NCBI GenBank assembly: GCA_964442185.1
Contig: CAYTWT010000257.1
Location: forward strand, 97,979 to 161,978
DNA from: an uncultured Acidobacteriota bacterium
GTDB lineage: Bacteria > Acidobacteriota > Vicinamibacteria > Fen-336
DNA length: 64,000 nucleotides
Direction: 5' to 3'
Shown here one piece after another: positions 33,463-61,067 of this stretch; positions within the stretch are counted from its first letter, which is position 1; each line of letters begins with the position of its first letter. Made by a program: the position numbers and the translations under genes. The notes below the pieces were generated by a model that saw nothing but the letters and a program-made list of their open reading frames with translations, did not search any database and was not told the DNA's origin.

Positions 33463-33497
33463 CCCCCGGCCTGCCGGGCTGCGGCGCTACCGCCCGT

Positions 33498-34706
33498 TCA
33501 TTTCGTGAGCAGCCTGGCTGCGGCGACGTAAACGTCGTCTGCCGTCACCAGGCGCAGGCACTCGGGCGGCTCGGGTCCCGCGCACTCCTGCGGCGGCTTG
33601 CGGATCAGGTTGCAGGGTGAGCACCAGAGTTCCGCGCGCACGACGACGTGACGCGTGCCCGACGCACCGCTGCCGCCCGAGAAGTAACGCCCGGGATCGG
33701 AAGGGCCGAAGACGCTCACCGACGGTGTTCCCACGGCGCAGGCCATGTGCATCGGCCCCGTGTCCGACGAGAGGAAGAGATCCAGCCGCTCGATCATGGC
33801 CAGCGTCTCCCGCACGCCGAGCCGGCCCGTCAGATCGACGGGCTTCGTCGACAGCGCCTTTGCGAGGACCGCGGCGAGCGGCCGATCCGCTTCCGAGCCG
33901 GTGACGAGGAGCGTCGCGCCGAACTGCTTCTGAAGCCGGAGCGCCACTTCGGCCCAGCGCGCGACGTCCCATTGCTTCACCAGCCGGCCGCCGCTGGGAT
34001 GCAGGCCAATCAGCGGGCGTCTCTCGTCGAGGTGCAGGTTCCGCAGCAGCTCTTCCGCGAAGCGCCGGTCTTCGCGCGTCAGCGGATCGTGCGCGCTGGG
34101 CGTCGAGACGCCGATCGCCGTCGCCACGGCGCGGCGGTTCTGCTCGACCCACGAAATCGTCTCGTCCAGCGCGACGACGTGCGTGAGCAGGTAGCGGCCG
34201 CCGGTGTTGGCGTAGCCGACGCGCGCGCGCGCCCCGGCCAGGCTCATCAGGATCGAGGCGCGGATGTCGCCCTGCAGGTCGATCGCCAGATCGAGGGATG
34301 CATTACGCAGTGCGCGCGCCGCCGCGGCGAGGCTCGAGAAGCTCGTAGCACCTTCGCTCGGACGGCCCACCCAGGGCGCGCTCCAGACCAGGATCTCGTC
34401 CACGGACGCGCCCTTCGCGAGCCCCGCGCTCCAGGCGCCGACGGCGAGGCGGATGCGGGCGTGCGGCAGCGCCGCGCGGAGCTCAGCGAGAGCTGGCAAG
34501 GACATCACGACGTCGCCGATACGATCGAGGCGCAGCACCAGCACCTCGCGCAGCGTGGCGCGATCGAGCGGCTGTGACGCCTTTGGCCGCCAGCCGAGGA
34601 AGAGGCGCCCGGGGAGATCGAGCGCGCCGAGCAGCAGCCGCTCTGCCGGGTCGTAGACCCGGCTCGCGGTGCCGCTAACGGGCTGCCAGCGCCGCCGCTT
34701 GGACAT
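33498..34706 (-). CDS. Glycosyltransferase family 9 (heptosyltransferase-like)
   Basis: VLVLRLDRIGDVVMSLPAL...SSDTGPMHMACAVGTPSVSVFG...CSPC. Start placed at the ATG 34706-34704, overlapping the upstream gene by 32 bp. Confidence 0.75.
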   Translation of the reverse strand: MSKRRRWQPVSGTASRVYDPAERLLLGALDLPGRLFLGWRPKASQPLDRATLREVLVLRLDRIGDVVMSLPALAELRAALPHARIRLAVGAWSAGLAKGASVDEILVWSAPWVGRPSEGATSFSSLAAAARALRNASLDLAIDLQGDIRASILMSLAGARARVGYANTGGRYLLTHVVALDETISWVEQNRRAVATAIGVSTPSAHDPLTREDRRFAEELLRNLHLDERRPLIGLHPSGGRLVKQWDVARWAEVALRLQKQFGATLLVTGSEADRPLAAVLAKALSTKPVDLTGRLGVRETLAMIERLDLFLSSDTGPMHMACAVGTPSVSVFGPSDPGRYFSGGSGASGTRHVVVRAELWCSPCNLIRKPPQECAGPEPPECLRLVTADDVYVAAARLLTK

Positions 34707-35895
34707 AGCACGCTTCGAAGGCCTGTGCGGCCGCATCCCAGGACAGCCGGGTGAGCGCCGTCTGTCTCGCAGCACTCGCCAGGCGCTCGCGGGTCGCGCT
34801 CTCGCGCAGCAGGCGGCGCAAGGCTTCGGCCAGAGCGGCCGGATCCTTCTCCGGGACCAGCAGGCCGTTGCTGTCGTGCTCGATCACGTCGGGGATGCCG
34901 GCGACGCACGAAGCCACGATCGGCCGGCCCGCGGCAAGCGCCTCGAGCAGCGCGTTCGGCAAGCCGTCGACGTTGCCGGCATGGTCCACCACCGAGGGCA
35001 CCACCGCCACGTCGGCCGTGGCGAGCGCAGCGGCCATTGCCTCACGGGGCAGCGCGCCACAGAACGTGACCGGGGCGCCCGTGTCGCGGGCGAGCGTTTC
35101 GAGCTCAGTGCGCAAATCGCCCTCCCCCGCGATCACGACCCGCGCCCCGCCGAGCAGCGGCGCGGCCTCGATCAGGTAGCGAAAGCCCTTCTTCTCCACG
35201 AGCCGTCCGAAAGCCAGAATCAGAAGAGCCTCCTCCGCGACGCCCAGGCGCGCGCGGATCGCGGCGCCATGCTGGGCGTTCAGATCGGGCGCAAAGGCGG
35301 CGACGTCGACACCATAGGCCACGGTGCGGGTCCGCTCCGGAGGCGCGCCGAGGCGCACAGCGCGACGCCGCAGGTCCACGCTGCAGGCGGTGATGGCGCC
35401 CGCCACTCCGAAGGCGCGTTGCGCCAGGATCCGCGCGGGCCACAGTCGCTCCGCCACGAACACGTCGCTGCCGTGCAGGCTCACCACGAACGCCGTGCGG
35501 TGGCCCTGCACGATGTCGGTCACCAAGGCCGCGTTCGGAACGACCCAGTGGGCATGAACGACATCGTAGCGCTCGGCCAGCAGCCGCTCGCTGAGCTGCC
35601 GGCGGAGCGCGAGTGCGACGAAGGGTGCGAGCAGGTACATGCCCTTCCGCACCCGCACGTCGGCCTCGAGGCTCTGCGCGTAGCCCCAGCGGCTCCACGC
35701 CTCGGAGGGGGCGTATGCGTATGGGAAGAAGCGAACGCCCTCATCACCGCCGCGCTGCAGCTCAGGGTGATGCGGCAGGACCACGTCCACCTGGTGCCCG
35801 CGCTTGGCGATGGAAACGGCGATGGACTCGATGAACGGGGCGGTCACGTCGCCGGGGAACTTGGGGTACGACGAGGTGAGCATGAGCACGCGCAT
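34675..35895 (-). CDS. Glycosyltransferase family 4
   Basis: MRVLMLTSSYPKFPGDVTAPFIES...HAGNVDGLPNALLEALAAGRPIV. ATG 35895-35893 shares a base with the upstream TGA. The ORF-track N-terminal 104 aa are artefact. Confidence 0.75.
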   Translation of the reverse strand: MRVLMLTSSYPKFPGDVTAPFIESIAVSIAKRGHQVDVVLPHHPELQRGGDEGVRFFPYAYAPSEAWSRWGYAQSLEADVRVRKGMYLLAPFVALALRRQLSERLLAERYDVVHAHWVVPNAALVTDIVQGHRTAFVVSLHGSDVFVAERLWPARILAQRAFGVAGAITACSVDLRRRAVRLGAPPERTRTVAYGVDVAAFAPDLNAQHGAAIRARLGVAEEALLILAFGRLVEKKGFRYLIEAAPLLGGARVVIAGEGDLRTELETLARDTGAPVTFCGALPREAMAAALATADVAVVPSVVDHAGNVDGLPNALLEALAAGRPIVASCVAGIPDVIEHDSNGLLVPEKDPAALAEALRRLLRESATRERLASAARQTALTRLSWDAAAQAFEACYVQAAALAAR

Positions 35896-38444
35896 CAGTG
35901 GTTCGCCGTGAGGCGCAGGCGATCCAGCATCACGCCCAGATCGCGCGTGTCCGTAGCCCCGGGCAGGACGTTGGCTGGCCGCCAAGCGTTCACGTCGAAG
36001 CGCAGCACCGGTGGACCAGGGGGGAGCGTCTCGGGCAGCCGCAAGGAGTATTCGTCGAACCCGGTCGTCGGCGTGAAGGCGCCGAGCTCGGCGCCCGAGA
36101 GTGAAGCTCGCACCACTGCAGGCTTGAGGTCCGGGCGTGCTCCTGCAGCGGCTGTGACCACGAGTGTGTCGCCACCCCTTGCGCCGGGCAGGTAGACCGA
36201 GGCGCACGCCCCGGTCCAGCGAAACGTAAGGTCCCCGCCTCCCTCCTTGTCGAACAACCCCGAGACCTGGAAGTCATCGGAGCCGCCGAGGTCGACCTCG
36301 CGCAACGGCGGCACCTGGAGCTCTTCGGGCGGCACAACGCGCGAGACCGTGAAGTGCAGGGCGCGGAACTCGGGCCGCTCCGGCGGCCGGCCGTAGGCAC
36401 GCTCCCACTCGTAGGTTCCGAAGGAGTAATTCTCGACGCGCTCCAGGAACAAGCCGCACAGGTCAGTGCGGTAAGTGTGGACAAAATACAGGTTGCGATA
36501 AACGGGGCGCCAACTCGTCACGAGATGCCGCAATTTCTCGGGATCCGGGTTGAAGCGTGCGAGCTCGAGCACGCTCACTCCGTGGACGGCCCACAAGGGC
36601 AGCGACAGCAGGTGAATGCTCTGGACCTGCTCGAAGATCACGATGTCGTCGGGCCCGAAGCGTCGCGCTACGTCGTCGACGAAGCGCACGGCGTTCTTCC
36701 AATCCGTGAAGCCCGCGATGCGGGCCGTGTCTCGAGCGAAGGCAAGCAGCAGTGCCAGCGCGAGCGCGCCGGCGGCCACGCGCCGTAGCCCGCCCCGGCC
36801 CGCGAGGCGCACCAGGAAGAAGGCCGCGAGGCCGAGCAGGCACGGCAGGATCACCGGCACGAAGCGGCGCAAGGCGAAGTAGTAGTCGTTGTAGATGCGG
36901 ATCTTGTAGAAGTAGAAGCTCGAGAAGGAGAGTGCCGCGAGCAAGAAGAACAGATAGCGTCCGCGAAACTGCCGAATCGCGAGCAGCAGGCCGAGGATCC
37001 CGAGGCCAAGCCCGAGCGGCGTCACGAACCAACCCAGCCTCACAAGCGACTGGGCGTCGTGGGCGGCGAGCCGCGAGAAGCCCAGCCTGCCGAGCACTCC
37101 GGCATCCTGCCAGGCGAGAGCGGGATCATTGCCGTCGGCGCCGGCCCAGGCGGAGAACAACGGCCGGACGAAGTAGGCGTAGGCCGCGACGAAAACGACC
37201 AGAGCCATCGCGCCCGAGCGCAGCCTCTCGGTGCGGCCCTCGAGCCAGAGCACCAGGCGCGGGCCATAGCGACTCGCGGCCAGCATGAAGCCGAGCGCCA
37301 GAACGCCGCAGGCGATCCACACCGCCGGCGGCTGCCGCCAGTACGGACGCGACGCGATGTTGTCGATGTACTTCCGCGCGAACAGGGCGGCGTGCAGAGC
37401 GGCGTGGGCCAACAGGGCCGCCAGCGGAACGAGCGCGGCCGCGGCTCTTCGCCAGGGCAGATCGCCATGGGCGCGCCGGATCAGCACGTAGAGCGCGAGC
37501 GGCGCCAGCAGCAGCACGCTGTCGATGCGGACCAGCAGCGACAGGCCGAGTGCCAACCCGAAGAGGGCGCCGAAGAATGGCGACGCGCGCTCCTCCCAGT
37601 GCGCCAGCCCCAGCAGAGCGACGAAGACGAGGAACTGCGAGACGGGCTCGGACACCGGATAACGCGCGAACCAGACCTGCATGACGTTGCTGGCGAGCAG
37701 CAGCGCGCCCAGCAGCGCCGTGGCATCGCCGAACAGGCGCCGCATCGCCAGGAAGAAGCCGAGCGTGCCGAGGATCCCGAAGACCGGAGGCGTCGCGAGC
37801 GCGCCCTTCACGCCCATGGCCTGGAACAAGAAAGCCCCGAAGGCGGGAAACAGGTGGAAGAACTCGGGGAAGACGCGGCCCGACTCCGGACGCTCCAGGG
37901 GGAAGCCCATGAAGCGGCCCCAGTTGAAGTCGGGGCTCCCGGGGTTGCGATAGAACAGCTCGACGTCCTGCTTCGGGATCGAGAGCACGGCAGGGTCGGT
38001 GTAGGCAATCCCGCCCGTGCGCGCGATCAAGCCCATGGCGCCGATGTAGGTGCCCGGATCGCGTCCACCTAGCAGGTACTCGCCGGGTCGCGCCTGCATG
38101 CCAAAGGCGAGCAACAGCACGATCAGGGCGGGAGCGGCATCCGTAGCCGAACCAAGGCGCGGGAACGGCGCCGCGAGCCGGCGCCTCCCGAAAACCAGCG
38201 CCGCGAGGCTCGCCGCGCCGAGAATCGCGGCCGCGCTGACGAGCGAGAAGCGCCCCATCTCCGCGAGCACCAGCCCGACCCACGACGCGGCCATGACGCT
38301 GACCGCGACCGACAGGAACAGCGCCTCGTCGAGGCGCAGCGCATCCCTCTCGCGTTTGCCCAGCAGCGCCAGGAAGACGAGGCCGGGAACGACGAATAGA
38401 AAGAGCCCGGCCACCGTCGCCGTGGCGGGGTCGACCAGATTCAC
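35895..38444 (-). CDS. 849-aa polytopic membrane protein, GT-C-like, with a C-terminal extracytoplasmic domain
   Basis: At least 13 predicted TM helices over ~600 aa, then a ~230-aa soluble C-terminus. No recognisable catalytic family beyond this architecture. Confidence 0.55.
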   Translation of the reverse strand: MNLVDPATATVAGLFLFVVPGLVFLALLGKRERDALRLDEALFLSVAVSVMAASWVGLVLAEMGRFSLVSAAAILGAASLAALVFGRRRLAAPFPRLGSATDAAPALIVLLLAFGMQARPGEYLLGGRDPGTYIGAMGLIARTGGIAYTDPAVLSIPKQDVELFYRNPGSPDFNWGRFMGFPLERPESGRVFPEFFHLFPAFGAFLFQAMGVKGALATPPVFGILGTLGFFLAMRRLFGDATALLGALLLASNVMQVWFARYPVSEPVSQFLVFVALLGLAHWEERASPFFGALFGLALGLSLLVRIDSVLLLAPLALYVLIRRAHGDLPWRRAAAALVPLAALLAHAALHAALFARKYIDNIASRPYWRQPPAVWIACGVLALGFMLAASRYGPRLVLWLEGRTERLRSGAMALVVFVAAYAYFVRPLFSAWAGADGNDPALAWQDAGVLGRLGFSRLAAHDAQSLVRLGWFVTPLGLGLGILGLLLAIRQFRGRYLFFLLAALSFSSFYFYKIRIYNDYYFALRRFVPVILPCLLGLAAFFLVRLAGRGGLRRVAAGALALALLLAFARDTARIAGFTDWKNAVRFVDDVARRFGPDDIVIFEQVQSIHLLSLPLWAVHGVSVLELARFNPDPEKLRHLVTSWRPVYRNLYFVHTYRTDLCGLFLERVENYSFGTYEWERAYGRPPERPEFRALHFTVSRVVPPEELQVPPLREVDLGGSDDFQVSGLFDKEGGGDLTFRWTGACASVYLPGARGGDTLVVTAAAGARPDLKPAVVRASLSGAELGAFTPTTGFDEYSLRLPETLPPGPPVLRFDVNAWRPANVLPGATDTRDLGVMLDRLRLTANH

Positions 38445-39556
38445 GCCGGCAGGGAGCGCAAGGCCTCCCGCAGCGCCGCCACCACGGCGCCCACCTGCGC
38501 GTCAGTCATTTCCGGATAGATCGGCAGCGAGAAGATCTCCCGTGCCGCCTGCTCGGCCACGGGCAGATCGCCCGGCTTCCCGCCCAGGGATGCGAAGGCC
38601 GGTTGCAAGTGCAGCGGGATCGGGTAGTGGATCAGCGTGCCGACGCCACGCCCCTTCAAGGCGGCCATCAGCGAGTCGCGAAGTGCGTGGCGCACCACAT
38701 ACAGATGATAGACGGCGCGGGCGTACGGCTGTTCCTCGGGGAGCTGTAGCCCGATGCCCGCAAGGCCGTCCGCGTAAGCGGCGGCGATCTGCCGCCGCCT
38801 CCCGGTCCAGTTGGGCAGATGCCGGAGCTTCACGCGCAGGATCGCGGCCTGCATCTCGTCCAGGCGGCTGTTGATCCCGGAGAGCTCGTGCCGGTAGCGA
38901 TCGCTCTGCCCGCCGTTTCTGAGCTGGCGGAGTCGCGGCGCGAGCGAGAGGTCGTTCACCAGCACGGCGCCGCCGTCTCCGAAGGCGCCCAGGTTCTTGG
39001 TCGGATAGTACGAATGCGTTCCGAGGGCGCCGAGCGTTCCGACCGTCTGACCCTTGTACTCCGCGCCGTGGGACTGGCAGGCGTCTTCGACGACAACGAG
39101 ACCACGCCGTTCGGCGCTCTCGAGGATCGGATCGAGGTCGACGGGGTGGCCGTAAAGGTGCACCGGGAGGATCGCCCTGGTGCGCTTCGTGATCGCCCGT
39201 TCGACCGCGCCGGGCGCGAGGTTCAGCGTCCTGGGATCGAGGTCGGCGAACACGGGCCGCGCCCCCGCCCGCTCGATGGCGAGGGCGGTAAACGCCGCTG
39301 AGAGCGGCGAAGTGACGACCTCGTCGCCGCGCCCCACGCCCGTGGCCTCGAGCGCCAACTGGATGGCCTCCGTTCCATTCGCCACCGCCACCACGTCGGG
39401 GCAGCCCATCTGGGCCGCAAGCTCTCGTTCGAAGGCTTCATTCTCGGGACCGAGGATGAACCAGCCGGATTCCAGGACGCGCGCGATCGCGGCATCGATC
39501 TCGGCCCGGATCGGTGCCAGCTGGGCGCGGAAATCGCCGAACGGAACAGCGCTCAC
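38441..39556 (-). CDS. DegT/DnrJ/EryC1/StrS-family PLP-dependent sugar aminotransferase
   Basis: VANGTEAIQLAL...DACQSHGAEYKG...HSYYPTKNLGAFGDGG. GTG at 39556-39554 overlaps TGA 39555-39553 (verified). The ORF-track N-terminal 300 aa are artefact. Confidence 0.8.
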   Translation of the reverse strand: MSAVPFGDFRAQLAPIRAEIDAAIARVLESGWFILGPENEAFERELAAQMGCPDVVAVANGTEAIQLALEATGVGRGDEVVTSPLSAAFTALAIERAGARPVFADLDPRTLNLAPGAVERAITKRTRAILPVHLYGHPVDLDPILESAERRGLVVVEDACQSHGAEYKGQTVGTLGALGTHSYYPTKNLGAFGDGGAVLVNDLSLAPRLRQLRNGGQSDRYRHELSGINSRLDEMQAAILRVKLRHLPNWTGRRRQIAAAYADGLAGIGLQLPEEQPYARAVYHLYVVRHALRDSLMAALKGRGVGTLIHYPIPLHLQPAFASLGGKPGDLPVAEQAAREIFSLPIYPEMTDAQVGAVVAALREALRSLPA

Positions 39557-40548
39557 AGGTAGTGCTGCTTGTGGGCGCGATAGTAGGCGATGGTCTTTTC
39601 CAGGCCTTCGCGCAGACCGATGCGGGGCTTCCAGCCCAGCGCCGCATGGATCCGCGAGGCGTCGGCGTAGAAGTCGCCGATGTCGATGCGCTTCCGCTCG
39701 GGCGGAAACGGCGCCAGGCGCAGCGAGCCCTGGCCCGCGATCTCGATCATCAGCTTCGCCAGATCGGCGAGCGAAACCGGCGCCTCGCCACCGAGGTTGA
39801 AGACCTGGCCGTCGGCGGCCTGCATCGCCCCCGCACGCAAGAACGCATCGACCACGTCGTCGATGTAGTCGAAATCGCGGCGCTGGCTGCCGTCGCCGAA
39901 CAACTGGATCTCCTCGCCCAAGCTCACCTGGCGCACGAACCAGCCGATGAAGCCCTGGCGATTGTGGCGGATCAACTGGCGCGGACCGTAGCTGTTGGTG
40001 AGCCGCAACGAGGTGGTGCGGATGCCGTACACCGAGTGGTACACGAGGTGATACATCTCGCCCGAGATCTTGTTGATGCCATTCACGTCGATGGGCTGGA
40101 GCGGATGGGTTTCGTCGACGGGCAGTCGTTGGGGCTTTCCGTAGACCTGGCGGGTTCCCGCGTAGACGATCTTGAGGCCCGGGTTGCCCTTGCGCACGGC
40201 CTCGAGGATCGACAACTGGCTCCGGCAGTTGATCTCCAGGTCGGTGAACGGGTCCGTCATCGAATCGATGTGGCTCACCTGGCCCGCCAGGTTGAAGAGC
40301 AGCTCCTGGCCGAGTACCAGGTACTCCATGCCGTGGCCCCGAACGTCGGCGACGTTGATGCGGAGCTTGTCCTCGTAGCCTGCGAGGTTGAAGAGATTCC
40401 CGCCGTAGTCGGGGAGCAGGCTGTCGACCGCGGTGACGTCGGCGCCCAGATCGGCGAGCGTCCGGCACAGGTTCGAACCGATGAACCCGAGGCCGCCCGT
40501 GACCAGGACCTTGCGACCCCGGTAGAAATCGCGATGCGCCTCGCTCAA
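39553..40548 (-). CDS. NAD-dependent sugar 4,6-dehydratase/epimerase (SDR)
   Basis: FYRGRKVLVTGGLGFIGSNL...SGEMYHLVYHSVYG. TTG at 40548-40546 overlaps TGA 40547-40545 (verified). Confidence 0.75.
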   Translation of the reverse strand: MSEAHRDFYRGRKVLVTGGLGFIGSNLCRTLADLGADVTAVDSLLPDYGGNLFNLAGYEDKLRINVADVRGHGMEYLVLGQELLFNLAGQVSHIDSMTDPFTDLEINCRSQLSILEAVRKGNPGLKIVYAGTRQVYGKPQRLPVDETHPLQPIDVNGINKISGEMYHLVYHSVYGIRTTSLRLTNSYGPRQLIRHNRQGFIGWFVRQVSLGEEIQLFGDGSQRRDFDYIDDVVDAFLRAGAMQAADGQVFNLGGEAPVSLADLAKLMIEIAGQGSLRLAPFPPERKRIDIGDFYADASRIHAALGWKPRIGLREGLEKTIAYYRAHKQHYL

Positions 40549-41291
40549 CGCCGCCCCGCGGCGGCCTGGGCGGCGGGGGCCTTCAAGTGTTCCTTCCTCA
40601 CCACCAGCTCGAACCACAGCCGAGTCAGATCGACGAGCGTACGCGCGACGCGCGAGAAGTTGAAGAACTGGCTCTTGCCGTGGGAGCGGTGGTAGTGGTG
40701 CACGGGCACTTGCGCGATTCTAAAACCATGGTCCTGGACCTTCTTCATGAGCTCGACGCAGATCACGCCCGAGCTGCGCGTCAGGGTCACCTTTCGGAAG
40801 ATATCGCGTCGCATCAGGCGGAAGTCGCAGTCCACGTCCCGCAACCGCAGCCCGAACACGCTCCGCACGAACCAGTGATAGACGCGGCCGATCACGATCC
40901 GGTGCAGCGGATCGGAGCGGCCGATCTTGTAGCCGTTCACGAAATCGACGTCTGGGCCGAAGGCCTGGTAGAGTCTGGTCATCTCGCGCGGGTCGTACTG
41001 GGCGTCGCCGTCGGTGTAGAAGACCAGCTCCTTCGAGGCGGCTTCGAAGCCGCTGCGCAGCGCCCCGCCGTAGCCCCGGTTCTTCACGTGGTGAACGACC
41101 TTGAGCCATGGGAAGTGCTGGACCATCTCGTCCAGTAGCGCGCCCGTGTGGTCAGGGCCGCCGTCGTCGATCACGATCACCTCGTAGTCGTCGGCGATGC
41201 TGCGTGCCGTCATGTGGGCCGCGAGGCAGAGGCTCGCGATGGTGGCGGCGTCGTTGTAGGCGGGAAAGAAGATGGAGAGTGAGGGCTTCAC
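40545..41291 (-). CDS. GT2 polyprenyl-phosphate glycosyltransferase-like (DPM1/GtrB-like)
   Basis: SIFFPAYNDAATI...VIVIDDGGPDHTG...YTDGDAQYDP. Confidence 0.75.
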   Translation of the reverse strand: MKPSLSIFFPAYNDAATIASLCLAAHMTARSIADDYEVIVIDDGGPDHTGALLDEMVQHFPWLKVVHHVKNRGYGGALRSGFEAASKELVFYTDGDAQYDPREMTRLYQAFGPDVDFVNGYKIGRSDPLHRIVIGRVYHWFVRSVFGLRLRDVDCDFRLMRRDIFRKVTLTRSSGVICVELMKKVQDHGFRIAQVPVHHYHRSHGKSQFFNFSRVARTLVDLTRLWFELVVRKEHLKAPAAQAAAGRR

Positions 41292-41345
41292 GGGAAGAGC
41301 ACGCCTTTATGGAAAAAAGACGCTAACACGCGCGCTCTTTCGGGG

Positions 41346-43949
41346 TCAAACACGCCGCACCAGCAGGCTCGCAAGGCCCAGGCCCGCCACGCCGGCGAGG
41401 CCGAGGCCGACCATGAACCCGGGTGGCCGATGCCGAAGCTGCACGCGGTGCGTCCCAGGCCTGAGAACCACGCCCAGAGAGGCCTGGTTCACGCGCAGCA
41501 GAGGCGCCGACGTGTCGTCGAGTGAAGCGCTCCAGCCGGGATCCCAGCTCTCGGCGATCACCAGCACACCCGGACCCTCGGCGCGCACTTCGAGCGAGGA
41601 AGCCGAGGCGCTCACGACCGCGGCGCGCGAGGCGCGCCCGTCCGTGGGAAGGACGATGCCCGTGACATCGGAAGCGCTCACCAGCGCCTCGCGGCGGAGA
41701 TCGATGCCAGCCGTTTCGGGGATGCGCAGGTTTTCCACGACCGCGACATCCGTAGGCAAGACACGGAGCGACTCGACGACGTAGGCGCGTCCCTGCCCGC
41801 CGACGACTTCGTAGAGCCGGACCGACGGTGTCGCCGCCAGCTCGCGCAGGTGAGCTTCGTCGCTGACGTAGCCGCTCGCCAGTGATACCGGCGTGTAGCG
41901 TCCGGTGGCCGTATCCAGCAGCGCCATTCGCGCGAGCGTGAGCCGGCCACGGCCGGGTCCCCGGACGACGCGCACGCTGTCGACGTAGAAGCGCGAGGGC
42001 AGACGCAGGATGCCGAGATAGCGGTGCGCCGTGAAACCTCCAGGCCCGCGCCAACTTTCGAGGAGCGGGGCACGCTCATGGCGGACCAGCGGCCGGACAT
42101 CGGCGCGATCGAAGGCCCATTCGGCGGTCTCGAGGCCGGCGCGCAGCGGCAGGCGTGCCTCGCGACCGGAGGCGAGTCGTACCCGCACTTCCGCAACGAC
42201 TTCACCTTGCTCCAGCTCGACCGCGTCGGAAAGCCAGGACCCAAAGCGCAGCTCGGTGGCGGCGCTGAGCGGGACCGGGAAGGTGCGGCTCTCGCCAGGG
42301 CCGAGCACGAGGTCCAGGGTGTCGCCCAGGCCCCAACCGTCCGGCTCGGCGCGCAGCGCTGAGGAAGGCACCTGGAGCAGCCGCACGCCCTGTGCCGACA
42401 GCCGCGCCGGCTGCGAGCGCAAGAAGCCGCCGCTGAGCGTACCGCCCACCCCCATGCCATCCCAGGCAGCGCGGGTTCGCAGCGGGACCATCGGGTCGTA
42501 GCCCCCCGCGCTGCGCCGGCCACGCAGCGAGCCCAGGTTGCCGAAAGCGAGGTCGAGGGCCTCGAGGGCTGGCCAAGCGCGCGTCAAGCTCAGCACGCGT
42601 TCGCCCACGAGCGCCCCCATCGCGTGTTCGAGCGAGGCGCTCGTCGGCGTGCCGGCCTCGAGAACGCTGCGTGTCGGCGCGCTGTTCCACAGCCCGCGAG
42701 CATGGGGCTGAAGGAAGAAGGCCGCAGTGAAGGGTAGCAGCCACACGGCGGCGACGCCGGGCTGGGGCGAGCCGGCGAGCGTGAAGTACAGGATCATCGC
42801 CAGCGCCAGAACCCCCACGGCTCCCGCGAGCGTATCGGGGAGCGGTCCGAGTATGGCTGCCGAAACCGCCAGCCCCGCGCACGAGGCCAGCGAGGCAAAC
42901 AGCGTATAGGCTCGCAGACGCCGACCGAGCCCCTCGCGCCGTTCGGACCACTGCGCCGACAGCGACAAACCGGCCAGCACCGCCAGGGACAGATCGAAGA
43001 CGAGCGCCAGCGCCCCCGGCGCCGAGAGCGGCCCGCGTCCAAACTGCAAGGCGAGGCACAACCCGAGCGCCACGCCGAAGACGCGCACCGGCGTCTGCGT
43101 CAGCAGCAGCGGCAGCGCTGCGAGCGCGAACGCGGGCGCGGGTGAGTGGGAGACGTAGCGCAGGACGAGGCCGGTGAGGCCCGGGACGCCGGCCGACTCG
43201 GTCGGAAGCCCAGTCAGCGCCCGGCCTGCCTCTCGGGCCGCCAAAAGCGAGGGCAGCAACTGGGGTGCGGCGAGCAGGAAGCCGGCGCCGACCACGAGCA
43301 GGGACGTGAGGACGCGCGGTCGCGCGCCCGAGCCCCGAAACAAATGGCCCACGGCGAGCCGACCCACGACGAGCGCGAGCCCAGCGCGCCCGGCTTCGGG
43401 CGAGCCGGACAAGAACAACAGCGCGAGCGCGATGGCGAGCCCTGCGCTGCGCCGAGCGGTCGTCGCACGCATATGCCCCTCGGCCGCGAGCAACACGAGC
43501 GGCAGAAGTGGCGCGGCGACGATCGTGGCCGCGTCGTCCAGGTGCCCCACGAGATAGGGGCCAAGGCCGAAGCACAAGCCACCCACGTACGCGCCGATGC
43601 GATTTGTGCCGAGCCCTCGCAGATACACGAAGGTCAGCACCGCCGCCGCCGCCAGCGACGCGGTCAGCAGCAGTTGAAACGCGTCGAAAGGCGGCAGCCA
43701 CGCGAGCGCCAGCATCGGCGGATACAGCGCGCCGGGCCGGTACGCAGCCAGCAGTGGAGCGCCCGAGAAGATGGCACCGTTCCAGCTCGGCAGTTCGCCG
43801 TGGCGAAAGGCCTGCCACACGGCGGCGCGCAGGGGGAAGTGCAGGAATGCCCCGTCCCCGGGACTCACGATACGGCCTTCCAGCAGCGGCGGCGAGAGCG
43901 CTATGACCGGCGCCAGGGCCAGGAGGGCGAGGACCAGCCTCTCCCTCAC
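41346..43949 (-). CDS. YfhO-like large membrane protein (GT-C-type, probably uses polyprenyl-phosphate-sugar)
   Basis: 867 aa with an N-terminal polytopic domain, a central soluble domain and a C-terminal TM helix. ATGA-coupled to the upstream GT2, as in csbB-yfhO pairs (inferred). Confidence 0.55.
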   Translation of the reverse strand: MRERLVLALLALAPVIALSPPLLEGRIVSPGDGAFLHFPLRAAVWQAFRHGELPSWNGAIFSGAPLLAAYRPGALYPPMLALAWLPPFDAFQLLLTASLAAAAVLTFVYLRGLGTNRIGAYVGGLCFGLGPYLVGHLDDAATIVAAPLLPLVLLAAEGHMRATTARRSAGLAIALALLFLSGSPEAGRAGLALVVGRLAVGHLFRGSGARPRVLTSLLVVGAGFLLAAPQLLPSLLAAREAGRALTGLPTESAGVPGLTGLVLRYVSHSPAPAFALAALPLLLTQTPVRVFGVALGLCLALQFGRGPLSAPGALALVFDLSLAVLAGLSLSAQWSERREGLGRRLRAYTLFASLASCAGLAVSAAILGPLPDTLAGAVGVLALAMILYFTLAGSPQPGVAAVWLLPFTAAFFLQPHARGLWNSAPTRSVLEAGTPTSASLEHAMGALVGERVLSLTRAWPALEALDLAFGNLGSLRGRRSAGGYDPMVPLRTRAAWDGMGVGGTLSGGFLRSQPARLSAQGVRLLQVPSSALRAEPDGWGLGDTLDLVLGPGESRTFPVPLSAATELRFGSWLSDAVELEQGEVVAEVRVRLASGREARLPLRAGLETAEWAFDRADVRPLVRHERAPLLESWRGPGGFTAHRYLGILRLPSRFYVDSVRVVRGPGRGRLTLARMALLDTATGRYTPVSLASGYVSDEAHLRELAATPSVRLYEVVGGQGRAYVVESLRVLPTDVAVVENLRIPETAGIDLRREALVSASDVTGIVLPTDGRASRAAVVSASASSLEVRAEGPGVLVIAESWDPGWSASLDDTSAPLLRVNQASLGVVLRPGTHRVQLRHRPPGFMVGLGLAGVAGLGLASLLVRRV

Positions 43950-44794
43950 TTACGATCCTGTCCCGCCGCGATCTGCTCCGAGATGAGCCCGAACAGGAAG
44001 ACCACTACCGCCAGCTGGATCAGCAGCGCCGAGCCCATCGGGATCTTGCCGCGGTTCGCCACGTTCCAGGCGCCGTAGGCTGCGCCCAACACGAAGGCCA
44101 GGGCGCTTACCGGGAAGAACACGCGCAGCGGGCTGTAGAGCGTGACGATCTTGAGAATGATGAGCAGGAAGCGCGTCCCGTCGCGCAGCACTCTGACCTT
44201 GCTCGTGCCCACGCGCGGGCGCGCCCGGACCCTGACGAAATCCACAGACAGCCCTGCCTTGAGGAACGCGAGGCAGGACGTGGTTGGATAGGAGAAACCG
44301 TTGGGAAGCAGGGGCAGGATCTCGAGCAGCCGTTCACGGCGCGCCGCGCGGAAGCCGGAGGTGAGATCGGGGATCGGCCGCCCCGTGAGCCAGGAGGCGA
44401 GCGCCTTGAAGAGCGCGTTGCCGAGCGCGCGCGTGAAGGACTGGTCCTTCGACGCCCGGGCGCCGATCACCATGTCGAAGCTGCCGATGGGCCCGTAGAT
44501 CGCAGGCGCCTCGCCGGGATCGTGTTGGCCGTCGGCATCCATCAGCAGCACGACCTCGCCGCGCGCCTCGCGGATCCCGGTCTTGACCGCAGCCCCGTTG
44601 CCCTTGTTGTAGGGGTGGCGAACCACGCGGGCGCCTGCAGCCGTCGCACGCGCGGCCGTCGCATCCGAAGAACCGTCGTCGACGACGAGAACCTCGCGGA
44701 AGCCACCCTCCAGCAGCGGCGCGAGCACGCCTGCGATGCCGTCCTCTTCATTGAAGGCGGGAATCACGACCGAGACGTCCTTCGCCTCAGCCAC
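43946..44794 (-). CDS. GT2 polyprenyl-phosphate glycosyltransferase (CsbB/GtrB-like)
   Basis: VSVVIPAFNEEDGI...VLVVDDGSSDATA...LMDADGQHDP plus C-terminal TM helices. Confidence 0.8.
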   Translation of the reverse strand: MAEAKDVSVVIPAFNEEDGIAGVLAPLLEGGFREVLVVDDGSSDATAARATAAGARVVRHPYNKGNGAAVKTGIREARGEVVLLMDADGQHDPGEAPAIYGPIGSFDMVIGARASKDQSFTRALGNALFKALASWLTGRPIPDLTSGFRAARRERLLEILPLLPNGFSYPTTSCLAFLKAGLSVDFVRVRARPRVGTSKVRVLRDGTRFLLIILKIVTLYSPLRVFFPVSALAFVLGAAYGAWNVANRGKIPMGSALLIQLAVVVFLFGLISEQIAAGQDRK

Positions 44795-45749
44795 GGCGCT
44801 CGGGGGCCCGGAGCTCAGCCTTGCGGATCCGGTAGAGCAGGTCTTCGAGCAGCTTGCGGTTGCTCGCGATCAGGTCGGCCATGATCCCCCACTGCAGGGT
44901 CTGGAAGCCGAGGATCAAGAGCAGCACCGAGAGGATCGCGGACTGCAGGTGGCCGCGGATGTCGCCCAGCCACCAGAAGTAGGCGTAGCGCAGGCCCAGC
45001 AGGGCGCCGGCGGAGAACAGCGTCGATCCGAGCAGGACGAAGACCTTGAAGGGCTCGTACATCGCGTAGATGCGGAGGATCGTGGCGCCGCTGCGCTTCA
45101 CGTAGTCCCAGGTGGAAGAGAACAACCGCGACGGTCGCGTCTGCTTCGCCTCGATCGGCAGATGGGCGACCGCCATCTTTTTCTTGCCGGCCTGGATGAT
45201 CGACTCGAGCGTGTAGGTGAACTCGCTCACGATGTTGATGCGCAAGGCGGCGTCGCGCGTCAAGGCACGGAACCCGCTGGTCGTGTCCGGCACGTCGGTG
45301 CCAGAGACCTTGCGCACGACCCAGGATCCCAGCTCTTGCAGGCGGCGCTTGCCCCACGAGAAGTGGGCCACCTCGCTCACACGCCGATCGCCGATCACCA
45401 TGTCCGCTTCGCCGGCCAGGATCGGTGCGATCAGCAGCGGAATATCCGCCGCCGGATACTGGTTGTCCGCGTCGGTGTTCACGATGATGTCGGCGCCCAG
45501 GTGCACGCAGCTATCGAGGCCGGCCATGAAGACGTAGGCAAGGCCCCTACGTTTCGGGAACCGGACGACGTGGTCGGCGCCGTGTTCCCTGGCGACGGCG
45601 CTGGTCCGATCCGTGGAGCCGTCATCGATTACCAGCACCTCGACCGCGTCGATGCCGGGAATCTGTCGTGGGATCGAACGCAGCGCCTCGGGAAGTGTCG
45701 CTTCCTCGTTGAGACACGGGATCTGCACGATGAGTTTCACGCGCCGCAA
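44787..45749 (-). CDS. GT2 polyprenyl-phosphate glycosyltransferase (GtrB-like)
   Basis: LIVQIPCLNEEATL...VLVIDDGSTDRTS...NTDADNQYP plus C-terminal TM helices. Confidence 0.8.
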   Translation of the reverse strand: MRRVKLIVQIPCLNEEATLPEALRSIPRQIPGIDAVEVLVIDDGSTDRTSAVAREHGADHVVRFPKRRGLAYVFMAGLDSCVHLGADIIVNTDADNQYPAADIPLLIAPILAGEADMVIGDRRVSEVAHFSWGKRRLQELGSWVVRKVSGTDVPDTTSGFRALTRDAALRINIVSEFTYTLESIIQAGKKKMAVAHLPIEAKQTRPSRLFSSTWDYVKRSGATILRIYAMYEPFKVFVLLGSTLFSAGALLGLRYAYFWWLGDIRGHLQSAILSVLLLILGFQTLQWGIMADLIASNRKLLEDLLYRIRKAELRAPERRG

Positions 45750-45776
45750 ACGGTAGCACAGGGGTGTTTTCGGCCG

Positions 45777-46703
45777 TTAACTGCGCTGTCGACGCTGGAG
45801 GGCCCCGCGCCAGCCCGAATAGGCGCGGAACTGCCGCAGGTTATCGAGGATCGCCGCCGCCTGGTTCCGGCCGGTTGGGCGCTTCGGGAGCAGCGCCTCG
45901 CTGGCGCGGACCGCGCCCGCCGCCGCGGGCGTTTCCGGGGCGAGTGCCGGCGGGAGTGAGCGGAAGCCATCGTCCGTCGGGACACCCGCCGCGAAGACGG
46001 CGATTGAGCCCGCGAGCGTCAGAAACGACGAGCCCGAGGCGCCCTTGCCCAGCTCGAAGGCCCACGGGTCGATCTCGATGGGGGTCGGGTCTTCCCGCCA
46101 GTAAAGGTGAAAACGGTAACCGGCCTCAAGGGTTGCGGTGCGGATCGTCTTGCGCGCAGTGGCCCGCGCCTGGTACTCGCGGACGATCGGCCCGCGCACG
46201 ATCAGGAGCAGGTCTTTCGCCTCGACCGAAAGCCGAGCGTCGCCGAATCGCAGCCACAGTGCTTCAGCCGCGGCCGCCCCCCCCAGCGCGAGGCGCGGCG
46301 TTTCGGCCGCGCGCGTTTCGGCCTCGGGGATGGCGAGCGCTCTCACGCCCAGCGTCACCAGCCTTGCCGCTTCGGCCTCGGCCTCCGGGAGCGTCAGGAC
46401 GCGATGCAGTTGGGCGCCGCCGCGCCGCAGCCGCTGGTCGGCCTCGTAGGCTGTGAGGCCCAGGGCGCGGGCCAGAAGCGGCGCCGCGATGCCCAGGGCC
46501 TCGAACACCACCAAGCCGCGCTCGAGGTGTTTCGCCGCTGCCGGCACGCCCGGGACTCCAAGCGCCTGTGCGGCCGCGCTGGCGCTCTCCTGCGCCGCGG
46601 CCGAGAGCCCTGCGCCGCAGTAGAGGCAGCGGGCCTGCGCCACGGCGACCGGCCTTCGGCAAGAAGGGCAGCTAGACGTTGAAGCGGAAGTTGATGACAT
46701 CTC
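45777..46703 (-). CDS. Hypothetical protein with an N-terminal CPxC...CxxC zinc ribbon
   Basis: SCPSCRRPVAVAQARCLYCGAGL. No recognisable domain beyond that. The start is ambiguous (ATG 46754 or 46703). Confidence 0.5.
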   Translation of the reverse strand, partial: EMSSTSASTSSCPSCRRPVAVAQARCLYCGAGLSAAAQESASAAAQALGVPGVPAAAKHLERGLVVFEALGIAAPLLARALGLTAYEADQRLRRGGAQLHRVLTLPEAEAEAARLVTLGVRALAIPEAETRAAETPRLALGGAAAAEALWLRFGDARLSVEAKDLLLIVRGPIVREYQARATARKTIRTATLEAGYRFHLYWREDPTPIEIDPWAFELGKGASGSSFLTLAGSIAVFAAGVPTDDGFRSLPPALAPETPAAAGAVRASEALLPKRPTGRNQAAAILDNLRQFRAYSGWRGALQRRQRS

Positions 46704-47751
46704 CGTCGCGAACGACGTAGTCCTTGCCCTCGAGGCGCAAGCTGCCCTTCTCACGACAAGCCGCGAGCGACCCCGCGCCGATCAGATCGTCGAAGGCGAC
46801 CACCTCGGCCCGGATAAAGCCGCGCTCGATGTCGGAGTGGATCTCGCGCGCCGCTGGCTGCGCCTTGGTGCCCTTGCGGAGCGTCCAGGCGCGGCACTCG
46901 TCCTCGCCAGCCGTCAGGAACGAGATCAGGCCGAGCAGCGCGTAGGAGGTGCGGATCACTCGATCGAGCCCCGGCTCTTCGAGGCCGAGGTCCTCGAGAA
47001 AGGCCTTCGCATCCTCGGGGGAGAGCTCCGACATCTCGCTCTCGATCGTGGCTGAGACTGGGCACAGCGCCAGATGCGGGCGGCTCGCCACGAAGCCCAC
47101 CAGGCCGGAGGCGTCCAGGAAGGCCGCGGCGTTCTTGATCTGGTTTTCGCCCATGTTGATGGCGAGCAGCACGGGCTTTTCCGACAGGAACGAGTAGTTG
47201 CGCAGGCGGCGCCGCTCTTCGTCGTCGAACCCGATATCTCGGAGCGGCCTTTCCGCTTCGAGCGCTTCTTTCAGCTTGAGGAAGATCACCCGTTCCGCGA
47301 CGTCTTCAGCGTGATTGGCCTTCTTGATGCTGGCGCCCAAGCGCTCGAGGCGTTTCTCCACGGCGCCGAGGTCGGCGAGGATCAGTTCGAGGTCGAGCAT
47401 CGACGCGTCACGGAGCGGGTCGACCGAGCCCTCAGGATGGGGAACCACGTCCGACTCGAAGGCCCGCACGACATGGACCAGCGCATCGATGTTCCGCAGC
47501 GCTGGAAGATCCACGAGCTCCGCGCCCTCGCCCTTGGCGACACCGGGAACGTCCACGTACTCGATGCTAGCGAGCGTCTTCTTCTTGGGGCTGTAAAGCT
47601 TCGAGAGGGCCTCGACTCGAGGGTCTGGGACCCTGGCGATCCCTACGCGTGGCTCGGGGCGCCCGGAGGGAGGTGCCTGGGGGGCGCCGGTGAGGAGTTG
47701 GAACAGCGTGCTCTTGCCGACGGAGGAGAGACCGATGATGCCGACTTTCAT
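46672..47751 (-). CDS. ychF: Redox-regulated ATPase YchF (Obg-family GTPase)
   Basis: MKVGIIGLSSVGKSTLF ... C-terminal TGS-like DGDVINFRFNV. Confidence 0.9.
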   Translation of the reverse strand: MKVGIIGLSSVGKSTLFQLLTGAPQAPPSGRPEPRVGIARVPDPRVEALSKLYSPKKKTLASIEYVDVPGVAKGEGAELVDLPALRNIDALVHVVRAFESDVVPHPEGSVDPLRDASMLDLELILADLGAVEKRLERLGASIKKANHAEDVAERVIFLKLKEALEAERPLRDIGFDDEERRRLRNYSFLSEKPVLLAINMGENQIKNAAAFLDASGLVGFVASRPHLALCPVSATIESEMSELSPEDAKAFLEDLGLEEPGLDRVIRTSYALLGLISFLTAGEDECRAWTLRKGTKAQPAAREIHSDIERGFIRAEVVAFDDLIGAGSLAACREKGSLRLEGKDYVVRDGDVINFRFNV

Positions 47752-47814
47752 GCGGGGGGATTATAGCGTCCGGGCCTGGCCGAGGCCGGTGTAGTAACAT
47801 CGTGCAGCCTCAGC

Positions 47815-49350: not shown

Positions 49351-49489
49351 ACCCCGGAGCAGCCCTGGGCTCTTGGTGAGCGCCGGCGGGATCGTCGTGA
49401 CCCTCGCCGCGTAGCGTCCGGAGAGCCGCTGCAGGTGATTTGCCGCCCTCCCGCGCCCCCTCTACACTGTCGCTCCGGACCCGACTCGA

Positions 49490-50416
49490 ATGCTTCCACC
49501 CATCCTCGTCGCGGGCCTCGACGGGCGCAGCCTCCTCTTGGAGGCGCCGCTGCTGCGTCGTGAGGGGTACCCCGTCGAGGAGTTGCCCTCGGCGCACGAC
49601 CTGTTCGCGGTGCTGGCCTCCCAGGGCGCCTGCCGGCTCGTGGTCCTGGGCCCGCGCCTGCCGGACCTCAACCTGGCCGAGAGCATTCGCCGGATCCGCA
49701 GCTCCCCGCTGACCCGCCACGTCTCGGTTCTCGCCATCCTGCCCGCGGGCGAACCGGAGGACCTCGACGGCGCGGCCGTCGAAGCCGGGGCCAACGCGGT
49801 GATCCGGCGGCCGCTCGAGCAGGCGCGGCTCGAAGCGTGGCTGGCGAAGCTGCTGGCGGTGCCGCGGCGCGTCGAGGCACGGGTCCCGGTGCAGGGTCAC
49901 GTCGTCGGGACGCCAAAGGCCGCTAGCGGGCATTTCTACGGACTCACGCGCAACCTGAGCGTCAACGGGATGCTGCTCGCGAGCCCGGTGCGCCTCGCCC
50001 ATCCCGACGTCGAGCTGGAGTTCGGCCTGTCAGAGGCGCGCCCGGCGCTGCGCGCCCTGGGCCGGGTCGTGCGGGAGGCTCCGGAGATCGCCTGGCCGTA
50101 TCTCGGCTATGGCGTCGAGTTCCTGTTCATCCCGGAGGAGAGCATCATCAGCATCTCGTCCTTCATCGAGCGCGCCGTGCTCGCCTCGCTCCAGCGCATC
50201 AGCTCGGCGCCGATTCACGCGACGCTGCGGCGGGAGTTCTGGGTCTATGAGATCCTGAAACCGATCCCCGGCCCGGACGGCTGGCAGGCTGAGATCCGGC
50301 GCGCGCCCCGCGAAGCCTGGCGGCCGGGAGCGGCGGGCCCGTTCTACGTCGTTCTGGGCCGCTCGCCTGAAGATGCGCTTGCGCAGGCGCGGGGCTTCAT
50401 CCAGCGCCACGGCTAG
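49490..50416 (+). CDS. REC-like (degenerate receiver) plus PilZ-like domain protein
   Basis: N-terminal CheY-like fold (ILVAGLDGRSLLLEA...VLGPRLPDLN) and a PilZ-like RxxxR / N-x-S-x-x-G segment (GLTRNLSVNGMLL). Confidence 0.5.
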   Translation: MLPPILVAGLDGRSLLLEAPLLRREGYPVEELPSAHDLFAVLASQGACRLVVLGPRLPDLNLAESIRRIRSSPLTRHVSVLAILPAGEPEDLDGAAVEAGANAVIRRPLEQARLEAWLAKLLAVPRRVEARVPVQGHVVGTPKAASGHFYGLTRNLSVNGMLLASPVRLAHPDVELEFGLSEARPALRALGRVVREAPEIAWPYLGYGVEFLFIPEESIISISSFIERAVLASLQRISSAPIHATLRREFWVYEILKPIPGPDGWQAEIRRAPREAWRPGAAGPFYVVLGRSPEDALAQARGFIQRHG

Positions 50417-50417
50417 G

Positions 50418-60925: not shown

Positions 60926-61067
60926 CTCGAGGCTCGGTCCAAGGGACTCCCAGGGTGAACCGGGCAAGGGACTTGCTTACGCTCTCGTCCCGGGGCGGTT
61001 TGTGATCCAGAACGGAACCTCCCGAGGACACTTGGCGTCAGAGTCTGAGGGGGCGGGTGAGAAGAAG

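Follow-up and report, generated by a model that had tools for sequence, protein, structure and literature searches.

We analysed a 64,000-nucleotide stretch of DNA from an uncultured Acidobacteriota bacterium (GenBank assembly GCA_964442185.1, contig CAYTWT010000257.1, positions 97,979 to 161,978 of the forward strand; the whole stretch is called the window below). A preliminary description of its open reading frames (ORFs) had singled out three genes for glycosyltransferases of family 2 (GT2) flanking the gene of an 867-residue YfhO-like membrane protein, and had likened them to the csbB-yfhO pair of Bacillus, which glycosylates the envelope outside the cytoplasm. All four ORFs were found where that description had placed them, on the minus strand and with a third-position GC content of 0.83-0.88, and the public gene calls are identical for the 282-, 867- and 248-residue products. 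GT2 enzymes of the synthase type do stand beside a YfhO-type transferase of the GT-C (glycosyltransferase C) fold, but the unit is larger than a pair: the region is part of a translationally coupled ten-gene operon whose gene order is conserved across soil Vicinamibacteria (Table 1). The organism itself belongs to this class and encodes a TonB_C protein at 61002-61865, in agreement with its earlier reading as a TonB-bearing diderm.

The operon forms a run of minus-strand ORFs at 33.5-46.7 kb with a coding-type third-position GC of 0.82-0.88, in a window with a G+C content of ~69%. In the order of transcription it encodes a protein with no assigned family (the orphan), two GT2 enzymes (GT2-C and GT2-B), the YfhO-like protein, the third GT2 enzyme (GT2-A), an extended short-chain dehydrogenase/reductase (SDR), a nucleotide-sugar aminotransferase (DegT), a second GT-C protein of the PMT_2 family, and glycosyltransferases of families 4 (GT4) and 9 (GT9). 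As read from the sequence, successive genes overlap by 8, 4, 4, 4, 4 and 1 nt: GT2-C and GT2-B share 8 nt, GT2-B and the YfhO-like gene 4 nt, GT2-A and the SDR gene 4 nt (TTGA), the aminotransferase gene shares 4 nt with each of its neighbours, the SDR and PMT_2 genes, and GT4 overlaps the PMT_2 stop codon by 1 nt. The overlap between GT2-B and the YfhO-like gene had been described as ATGA; it reads GTGA, with a GTG start. A real gap, of 54 nt, occurs only between the YfhO-like gene and GT2-A, and the size of the GT4/GT9 overlap depends on the GT9 start, which may be 34775, 34736 or 34706. A promoter and terminator scan of positions 33000-48000 gave 0 promoter-like sites and 8 terminator-like sites, compared to 6.7 expected.

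Table 1. Genes of the operon in order of transcription, preceded by the neighbouring YchF gene, with positions in the window and the median identity of homologues at the compared loci to the window protein.
Product	Position	Strand	Size	Assignment and evidence	Median identity
YchF				Housekeeping GTPase	75%
Orphan protein, operon gene 1	45777..46700	-	~288-307 aa	Cytoplasmic; start uncertain: ATG 46700 or GTG 46643	43%
GT2-C	44787..45749	-	320 aa	Polyprenyl-phosphate glycosyltransferase-like; Pfam GT2 86 bits; two C-terminal transmembrane helices	81%
GT2-B	43946..44794	-	282 aa	Polyprenyl-phosphate glycosyltransferase-like; Pfam GT2 94 bits; two C-terminal transmembrane helices	75%
YfhO-like GT-C	41346..43949	-	867 aa	Pfam YfhO 29.8 bits, architecture, model	57%
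GT2-A	40545..41291	-	248 aa	ArnC-like GT2 catalytic domain; Pfam GT2 79 bits; no transmembrane helix	81%
SDR	39553..40548	-	331 aa	Extended SDR, epimerase/dehydratase family; Pfam Epimerase 154 bits	81%
DegT	38441..39556	-	371 aa	DegT/DnrJ/EryC1-family nucleotide-sugar aminotransferase; Pfam 381 bits	69%
PMT_2 (second GT-C)	35895..38444	-	849 aa	PMT_2/ArnT-like; Pfam PMT_2 30.7 bits (cut-off 26.1)	62%
GT4	34675..35895	-	~406 aa	Cytoplasmic; Pfam Glycos_transf_1 and Glyco_trans_1_4, 115-117 bits	64%
GT9, last operon gene	33498..34736	-		Heptosyltransferase family; Pfam Glyco_transf_9 128 bits	66%

Enzymes encoded by the operon

The family assignment of the three GT2 enzymes was borne out. All match Pfam Glycos_transf_2 (79-94 bits) and contain the DDG and DxD motifs (D94-G-D96, D86-A-D88 and, in GT2-C, D93-A-D95), in keeping with the DxD architecture named in the preliminary description. 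Their closest relatives of solved structure in the PDB are the polyprenyl-phosphate glycosyltransferases (Pren-P GTs) ArnC, Pyrococcus DPMS and GtrB. Among the NCBIfam models, GT2-B and GT2-C score best on AglJ and GT2-A on ArnC, in each case far under the equivalog cut-off. GT2-C scores 121 bits on the AglJ model over residues 7-298, aligns with ArnC (9HWJ) from 5-294 to 9-295, matches DPMS (5MLZ) at 1e-13 and has hydrophobic transmembrane (TM) segments near 233-254 and 271-291. GT2-B scores 131 bits on AglJ over residues 6-277, matches DPMS at 4e-14 and ArnC at 2e-13, and has TM segments at 209-243 and 249-279. In ArnC the acceptor phosphate is bound by R128, R137 and S141, equivalent to R117, R131 and S135 of PfDPMS (bioRxiv 10.1101/2025.01.29.634835). 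The aligned positions are R113, R122 and N126 in GT2-B and K122, R131 and G135 in GT2-A, so that both basic positions are kept in each of the two enzymes and the serine in neither. Given the homology, the motifs and the TM helices, a place for GT2-B and GT2-C in the Pren-P GT family is well supported.

GT2-A is ArnC-like and yet non-canonical. ArnC is its top match in both NCBIfam (1e-21) and the PDB (6e-19), and the alignment (5-224 to 10-226) includes the 'PVHH..R..G.S' segment and reaches the juxtamembrane region. C-terminal TM helices, at first looked for in each GT2, are present in GT2-B, in GT2-C and in a further GT2 of the window at 15185, but not in GT2-A, in which the maximum 19-residue hydropathy is 1.27, the C-terminal helix is amphipathic and the chain ends 22 residues past the ArnC-aligned juxtamembrane segment. 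The absence of the anchor is conserved, since all 120 homologues listed are 238-273 residues long; each of these matches is at least 80% identical to GT2-A, and the search reached no other phyla. Because the two C-terminal helices are missing, we did not file GT2-A as a canonical Pren-P GT. Their absence would nonetheless be compatible with the synthesis of a lipid-phosphate sugar. The NCBIfam models for PpgS (226 positions) and for a haloarchaeal dolichyl-phosphate hexose transferase (213 positions) are of catalytic-domain length, too short to include two C-terminal TM helices, and GT2-A scores on them at E 1e-11 to 1e-12 (44 bits on PpgS, compared to 83 bits for GT2-B). Enzymes of the PpgS and DPM1 types are GT2 proteins without a TM anchor of their own. 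GT2-A is thereby a plausible, if non-canonical, candidate for a lipid-phosphate-sugar synthase.

The 867-residue protein is predicted to be a divergent member of the YfhO superfamily with a GT-C fold. Its match to Pfam YfhO (PF09586) is marginal (29.8 bits, gathering cut-off 28.5) and limited to the last 60 residues or so (791-850, profile positions 774-833), and the matches of its close homologues are graded weak or faint. A weak DUF2079 match was found at the N-terminus, the only NCBIfam match is a weak one to PgfM2 (E 1e-3), and a sequence search of the PDB returned no match. The original YfhO call is carried instead by architecture, transitive homology and a structural model. According to hydropathy and the AlphaFold 2 model (pLDDT, the per-residue confidence, 86.6; pTM, the predicted template-modelling score, 0.86), ~10 TM helices lie within residues 1-420, followed by a soluble beta-rich domain at ~430-840 (~440 residues), which we infer to be periplasmic, and a C-terminal TM helix at 845-865. 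This architecture corresponds to that reported for B. subtilis YfhO, which has 13 TM helices and a 389-residue loop between the last two (PMC5836110). A profile built from 36 homologues retrieved 53,320 cluster representatives at E<=1e-3, showing that YfhO-like genes are extremely common in metagenomes; sampled distant matches score 50-97 bits on PF09586, and two of them (P0204 and P0180) match it over positions 5-432, that is, in the N-terminal TM region. When the model was compared with the PDB by Foldseek, its significant matches were GT-C enzymes exclusively: AftD at 1.5e-12 (12% identity), then EmbC, ArnT, PglB, AftA and STT3, with a probability of 1.00. For the beta-rich domain the only partial matches are weak (E ~1e-2) and fall in glycoside hydrolase and toxin domains that are likewise beta-rich. 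Residues G31-D32, in the first loop after TM1, are invariant in the 36 homologues, and Asp32 stands where we presume the catalytic acidic residue of GT-C enzymes to lie.

The second GT-C protein has ~12 hydrophobic segments and a C-terminal soluble domain. A PDB sequence search with all 849 residues gave no match; PMT_2 is, we assume, the Pfam family that includes ArnT. The position of its gene is conserved in 22 loci. Part of its soluble domain recurs elsewhere in the window: the N-terminal ~120 residues of a 601-residue membrane protein (16075-17880, minus strand) resemble it (33% identity, E 6e-6, hhalign probability 68%), presumably as an extracytoplasmic domain in both. Of the two glycosyltransferases that end the operon, GT9 scores 107 and 97 bits on the models for lipopolysaccharide (LPS) heptosyltransferases I and II, both under the cut-off.

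Two proteins point to the sugar that may be handled. The best PDB relative of the SDR is the UDP-hexose 4-epimerase 4ZRM (4e-42). When aligned to 4ZRM, 7YS8 and 1ORR, the SDR has Asn where the Tyr of the YxxxK motif is expected ('DVNGINK' vs 'SPYGIAK'), and this NxxxK motif is invariant in 26 orthologues. The Thr, the Lys and the GxxGxxG motif are retained, while the Asp-Glu or Asp-Lys acid/base pair of 4,6-dehydratases is absent. The protein thus departs from the catalytic [ST]...YxxxK triad of the extended SDR family, though active SDRs without the Tyr are known, namely the Mx3K enzymes WbpM and PglF (PMC8987622). No precedent for an Asn-for-Tyr (Nx3K) nucleotide-sugar SDR was found in the literature searched. 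The top PDB match of the aminotransferase is a generically named entry, 7B0D (1e-113), for which our literature search found no paper. Its nearest specifically named relatives are DesV (2OGA), QdtB and WbpE (1e-107 to 1e-86), which we take to be C3-aminotransferases; ArnB follows at 1e-52, and the score on the ArnB model is 217 bits (cut-off 631). The presence of these enzymes suggests that the operon supplies an amino-sugar donor.

The first gene of the operon encodes a protein that matches no Pfam or NCBIfam family. Its 152 homologues are unnamed or hypothetical, and the few that carry an organism name are from Vicinamibacteria. The protein has an N-terminal zinc ribbon (CPxC...CLYCG), and its model (pLDDT 88) combines a ClpS/L7-L12-like alpha/beta domain with a PH-like beta sandwich. 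Compared with the PDB, the model has no significant neighbour, the best being a match of the ClpS-like subdomain at E 0.015. In the public gene call, which starts at GTG 46643 and gives 288 aa, the first CxxC seems to be missing. Of the 27 loci described below, 21 carry the gene upstream of the GT2 or YfhO genes.

Conservation of the locus and the proposed pathway

To place the operon in its lineage, we compared 27 loci from species-representative genomes (metagenome-assembled genomes of Acidobacteriota or Vicinamibacteria) and two metagenome contigs. The named homologues are Acidobacteriota, mostly labelled Vicinamibacteria. In every locus that spans the region the order of genes is identical, from YchF through the orphan to GT9 as listed in Table 1, except in the two loci L022 and L025 and in genomes without the SDR. 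With a median identity of 81%, GT2-A, GT2-C and the SDR exceed the housekeeping GTPase YchF encoded next to the operon (75%). This sign of purifying selection suggests that the operon provides a core function of the envelope and not a decoration that varies.

The exceptional loci divide the operon. L022 and L025, which are deep-branching and not mutual closest relatives, are missing GT2-C, GT2-B, PMT_2, GT4 and GT9 at the locus and keep the orphan, YfhO-like, GT2-A, SDR and DegT genes, followed by unrelated polysaccharide genes. Wherever a locus spans the region, the YfhO-like gene is followed directly by GT2-A, with 8-81 nt between them. Since L022 and L025 lack GT2-B yet keep the YfhO-like gene together with GT2-A, the constant partner of the YfhO-like enzyme would be the TM-less GT2-A and not the overlap-coupled GT2-B, for which the preliminary description had argued from the start/stop overlap. 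In ~14 loci an extra short, TM-less, DPM1-like GT2 directly follows PMT_2 (in L002, for example, at 18188-18955, 255 aa), mirroring the arrangement of the YfhO-like gene and GT2-A; this gene is missing from the window.

A candidate fusion of the YfhO-like protein with GT2-A (P0102, 1187 aa, a cluster of 30 members) was also considered and rejected as strong evidence. The DNA shows a lost YfhO stop codon, after which the ORF translates ~70 intergenic codons before it enters GT2-A; this loss occurs in L003 (81-3644) and L007 (7798-11307) only, with identical spacing and so probably in one lineage, whereas all other loci have two distinct genes, which for the most part do not share a reading frame. 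The read-through ORF shows only that the C-terminus of the YfhO-like protein is topologically compatible with GT2-A.

We favour, with a probability of roughly 0.55, the reading that the operon performs extracytoplasmic (periplasmic) glycosylation of an envelope glycoconjugate by a multi-component transmembrane route made up of two modules. At the cytoplasmic face, the anchored GT2-B and GT2-C and the peripheral GT2-A would load single sugars from nucleotide sugars onto undecaprenyl phosphate. The lipid-linked sugars would next be flipped by a protein encoded outside the operon and the window, and the YfhO-like and PMT_2/ArnT-like GT-C enzymes would then pass them to the acceptor on the periplasmic side. 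The core module would consist of the orphan, the YfhO-like protein, GT2-A, the SDR and the aminotransferase and would probably deliver an amino sugar; the second module would join GT2-C and GT2-B with PMT_2, GT4 and GT9. As to the acceptor, GT9 hints at LPS core or lipid A, a glycan is at most hinted at by the matches of the beta-rich domain, and a protein, by analogy with streptococci, is conceivable. A more specific version remains tentative: a class-wide pathway of Vicinamibacteria in which a YfhO-type GT-C enzyme with a docked anchor-less synthase, an NxxxK SDR, a C3-type aminotransferase and an orphan zinc-ribbon protein might equip LPS or a surface protein with an unusual amino sugar, as a core and not an accessory feature of the envelope.

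Several observations weigh against periplasmic glycosylation by two modules. First, the TM helices seen in Pren-P GTs of solved structure are absent from GT2-A, in which Gly stands at the position of ArnC S141. Second, the division into modules is based on two genomes, and the GTGA overlap physically couples GT2-B to the YfhO-like gene. Third, more distant YfhO-like paralogues (P0239 and P0204) are orphan genes with no GT2 adjoining. Fourth, the SDR has neither the catalytic Tyr nor the acid/base residues of 4,6-dehydratases or decarboxylases, so that the operon leaves the source of the aminotransferase's keto-sugar unexplained, and the SDR gene is missing from the operon in three genomes (L009, L023 and L024). 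Fifth, GT9 and GT4 fall under all NCBIfam equivalog cut-offs, and for this reason an LPS acceptor is only a hint. Lastly, the 64-kb window contains no ORF of 90-230 aa with at least three hydrophobic segments (GtrA- or ArnE/F-like), nor does any gene conserved in the 29 related operons encode a small multi-TM flippase; the flippase gene may lie elsewhere in the genome.

The same genes could be paired differently. The GTGA overlap and the position of the only real gap, which parts the YfhO-like gene from GT2-A, would fit a scheme in which GT2-B is the equivalent of CsbB and feeds the YfhO-like enzyme, while GT2-A, SDR, aminotransferase and PMT_2 make up a separate module with ArnC-, ArnA dehydrogenase-, ArnB- and ArnT-like members that adds an amino sugar to lipid A or core. 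In resemblance to the Arn system (PmrHFIJKLM), genes for a GT2 similar to ArnC, an extended SDR, a DegT aminotransferase and a PMT_2 GT-C protein are contiguous and translationally coupled, with 4-nt overlaps chaining GT2-A through PMT_2. ArnC is the best family and structure match of GT2-A, and the presumed membership of ArnT in PMT_2 points the same way; the periplasmic addition of an amino sugar to an LPS component would be analogous. We nevertheless consider this scheme rather unlikely, as L022 and L025 are without GT2-B and PMT_2 and yet hold YfhO, GT2-A, SDR and DegT together, the aminotransferase is nearer to DesV, QdtB and WbpE than to ArnB (1e-107 vs 1e-52), and the SDR, with 34 bits on the ArnA model and no catalytic Tyr, is not an ArnA-type decarboxylase. 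An Arn operon proper was rejected on similar grounds: no formyltransferase domain, ArnD deformylase or ArnE/F protein (of the small multidrug resistance-like type) is encoded among the operon genes, the ArnA and ArnB scores are low, and GT2-A lacks the two TM helices of ArnC.

We regard it as improbable that GT2-A is an ordinary soluble GT2 that acts on a lipid-pyrophosphate-linked or other cytoplasmic acceptor, with only GT2-B and GT2-C making the donors for both GT-C enzymes. In favour of this, GT2-A has no TM helix and a Gly at the S141 position, and its similarity to ArnC is modest (72 bits), with chondroitin synthase and other GT2 enzymes also scoring; on the other hand, the ArnC alignment extends as far as the start of TM1 and keeps the 'PVHH..R..G.S' segment together with the two basic acceptor-phosphate positions, the PpgS and haloarchaeal models recognise GT2-A although they are too short to hold TM helices, and GT2-A adjoins the YfhO-like gene in every locus that spans the region, just as the second TM-less DPM1-like GT2 of ~14 loci follows the PMT_2 gene. 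AftD, the best structural match of the YfhO-like protein ahead of EmbC, is an arabinofuranosyltransferase that builds a polymer and carries carbohydrate-binding modules. With the weak glycoside hydrolase matches of the large beta-rich domain (E ~1e-2), this could suggest a glycan-elongating or polymerising enzyme of the AftD/Emb kind, or a non-catalytic scaffold, in place of a single-sugar transferase, but we think either most improbable: GT-C fold similarity does not separate these activities, the characterised YfhO members are reported or proposed to use donors linked to undecaprenyl phosphate (PMC5836110; bioRxiv 10.1101/2024.05.05.592596), and the invariant Asp32 would argue for catalysis.

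Related systems and other genes of the window

The favoured two-module pathway has parallels in Gram-positive bacteria. Systems of a GT2 and a YfhO protein glycosylate teichoic acids with GlcNAc: CsbB-GtcA-YfhO in B. subtilis and S. aureus and Lmo2550-GtcA-Lmo1079 in Listeria (PMC5836110, PMC8035078). As in these, a GT2 with two C-terminal TM helices (here GT2-B) is encoded directly upstream of a YfhO-type GT-C protein, the latter has many TM helices and an extracytoplasmic domain of ~390-440 aa between the last two, and the logic would be the same, with a lipid-phosphate sugar that is made, flipped and used outside. The differences are considerable. The host is a diderm acidobacterium, and to our knowledge teichoic acids are not expected in a diderm; the YfhO match is marginal (29.8 bits) and confined to the C-terminus; the operon holds three GT2 enzymes, a second GT-C protein, an SDR, an aminotransferase, a GT4 and a GT9; the window has no GtcA/GtrA-like gene; and the conserved partner would be the downstream TM-less GT2 and not the upstream anchored one. 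The Bacillus system is also under the control of a stress sigma factor (PMC8035078), whereas the cytoplasmic enzymes of the present operon are more conserved than its housekeeping neighbour.

The combination, in one locus, of two GT-C proteins with a GT2 and an epimerase-like gene of the SDR type also recalls the Pgf cluster of S. mutans (PgfS, PgfE, PgfM1 and PgfM2). In this cluster, which glycosylates Ser/Thr-rich proteins, and in the GtrB/PgtC2 system, PgfM1, PgfM2 and PgtC2 belong to the YfhO family (bioRxiv 10.1101/2024.05.05.592596). Our operon differs in that only one GT-C protein is YfhO-like, the other being a PMT_2 protein, and in its additional genes for an aminotransferase, GT4 and GT9. 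None of the scores comes near the equivalog cut-offs, and no Ser/Thr-rich acceptor protein was identified. The galactosamine transfer system of mycobacteria, PpgS (Rv3631)/Rv3632/Rv3779, offers a parallel for a short anchor-less GT2 that works with a GT-C enzyme; similarity to PpgS and AftD is at the level of family or fold only, and no small membrane protein of the Rv3632/GtrA type is present here.

The system most likely belongs, as a so far uncharacterised case, to the multi-component transmembrane glycosylation systems represented by CsbB/GtcA/YfhO, Gtr, Arn and Pgf, and is not a new mechanism; the known paradigm of a lipid-phosphate-sugar synthase with a GT-C enzyme is left unchanged. Four details stand out as odd: a GT2 that has no anchor, the Nx3K SDR, the orphan protein encoded first and the lack of a flippase gene in the window. 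In the literature searched, all characterised YfhO-type enzymes are from Firmicutes and act on teichoic acids or Ser/Thr-rich proteins, and none is from a Gram-negative or diderm bacterium. If the favoured reading is true, YfhO-type GT-C enzymes would extend beyond those systems to diderms. Vicinamibacteria are abundant in soils and rarely cultured, and their envelope chemistry is poorly known; the operon provides a concrete, conserved candidate for a core modification of their envelope glycans. It raises biochemical questions as to how an anchor-less GT2 works with a GT-C enzyme, what activity an Asn-for-Tyr SDR may have and which acceptor is modified.

Several other features of the window were recorded. 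The GT2 at 15185-16102, named earlier as a fourth lipid-phosphate-sugar synthase, is indeed PgfS/ArnC-like, with 218 bits on the PgfS model and two C-terminal TM helices; the gene of the 601-residue membrane protein mentioned above is convergent with it and overlaps its 3' end. Five GT-C-like proteins had been counted in the window. The assignment is firm for the two of the operon (35895 and 41346) and moderate for the other three (1664-3409, 4728-6716 and 11332-12744, minus strand), which have no Pfam match. These three are polytopic paralogues with 30-43% identity; their profile aligns with the PMT_2 core of the 849-residue family at an hhalign probability of 85% (E 7e-6), and ORF 1664-3409 weakly matches the putative glycosyltransferase family of Leptospira LA_3751/LA_3752.

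The paralogues lie in a large polysaccharide cluster at 1-26053. Besides five or more GT4 enzymes, the cluster encodes two methyltransferases, an amine oxidase-like flavoprotein, a Wzx-type flippase (19010-20470), an SDR (20505-21482), two NeuB paralogues (one within a long ORF) and an 839-residue protein with a cytidylyltransferase domain, which suggests that it makes a glycan containing nonulosonic acid. Directly downstream of the operon is a pair of genes for non-homologous end joining, LigD (27860-30424, minus strand; phosphoesterase, ligase and primase-polymerase domains) and Ku (32596-33462, plus strand), and Ku adjoins the operon in several related genomes. At the other end, divergent from YchF, the plus-strand genes at 47815-51425 encode a 511-residue protein with a weak VWA match, a PilZ protein with a degenerate receiver domain (49490-50416) and a 350-residue GT2 (50373-51425), the fifth of the window. 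This trio is kept in L001 and L002 and may represent a glycosyltransferase controlled by cyclic di-GMP.

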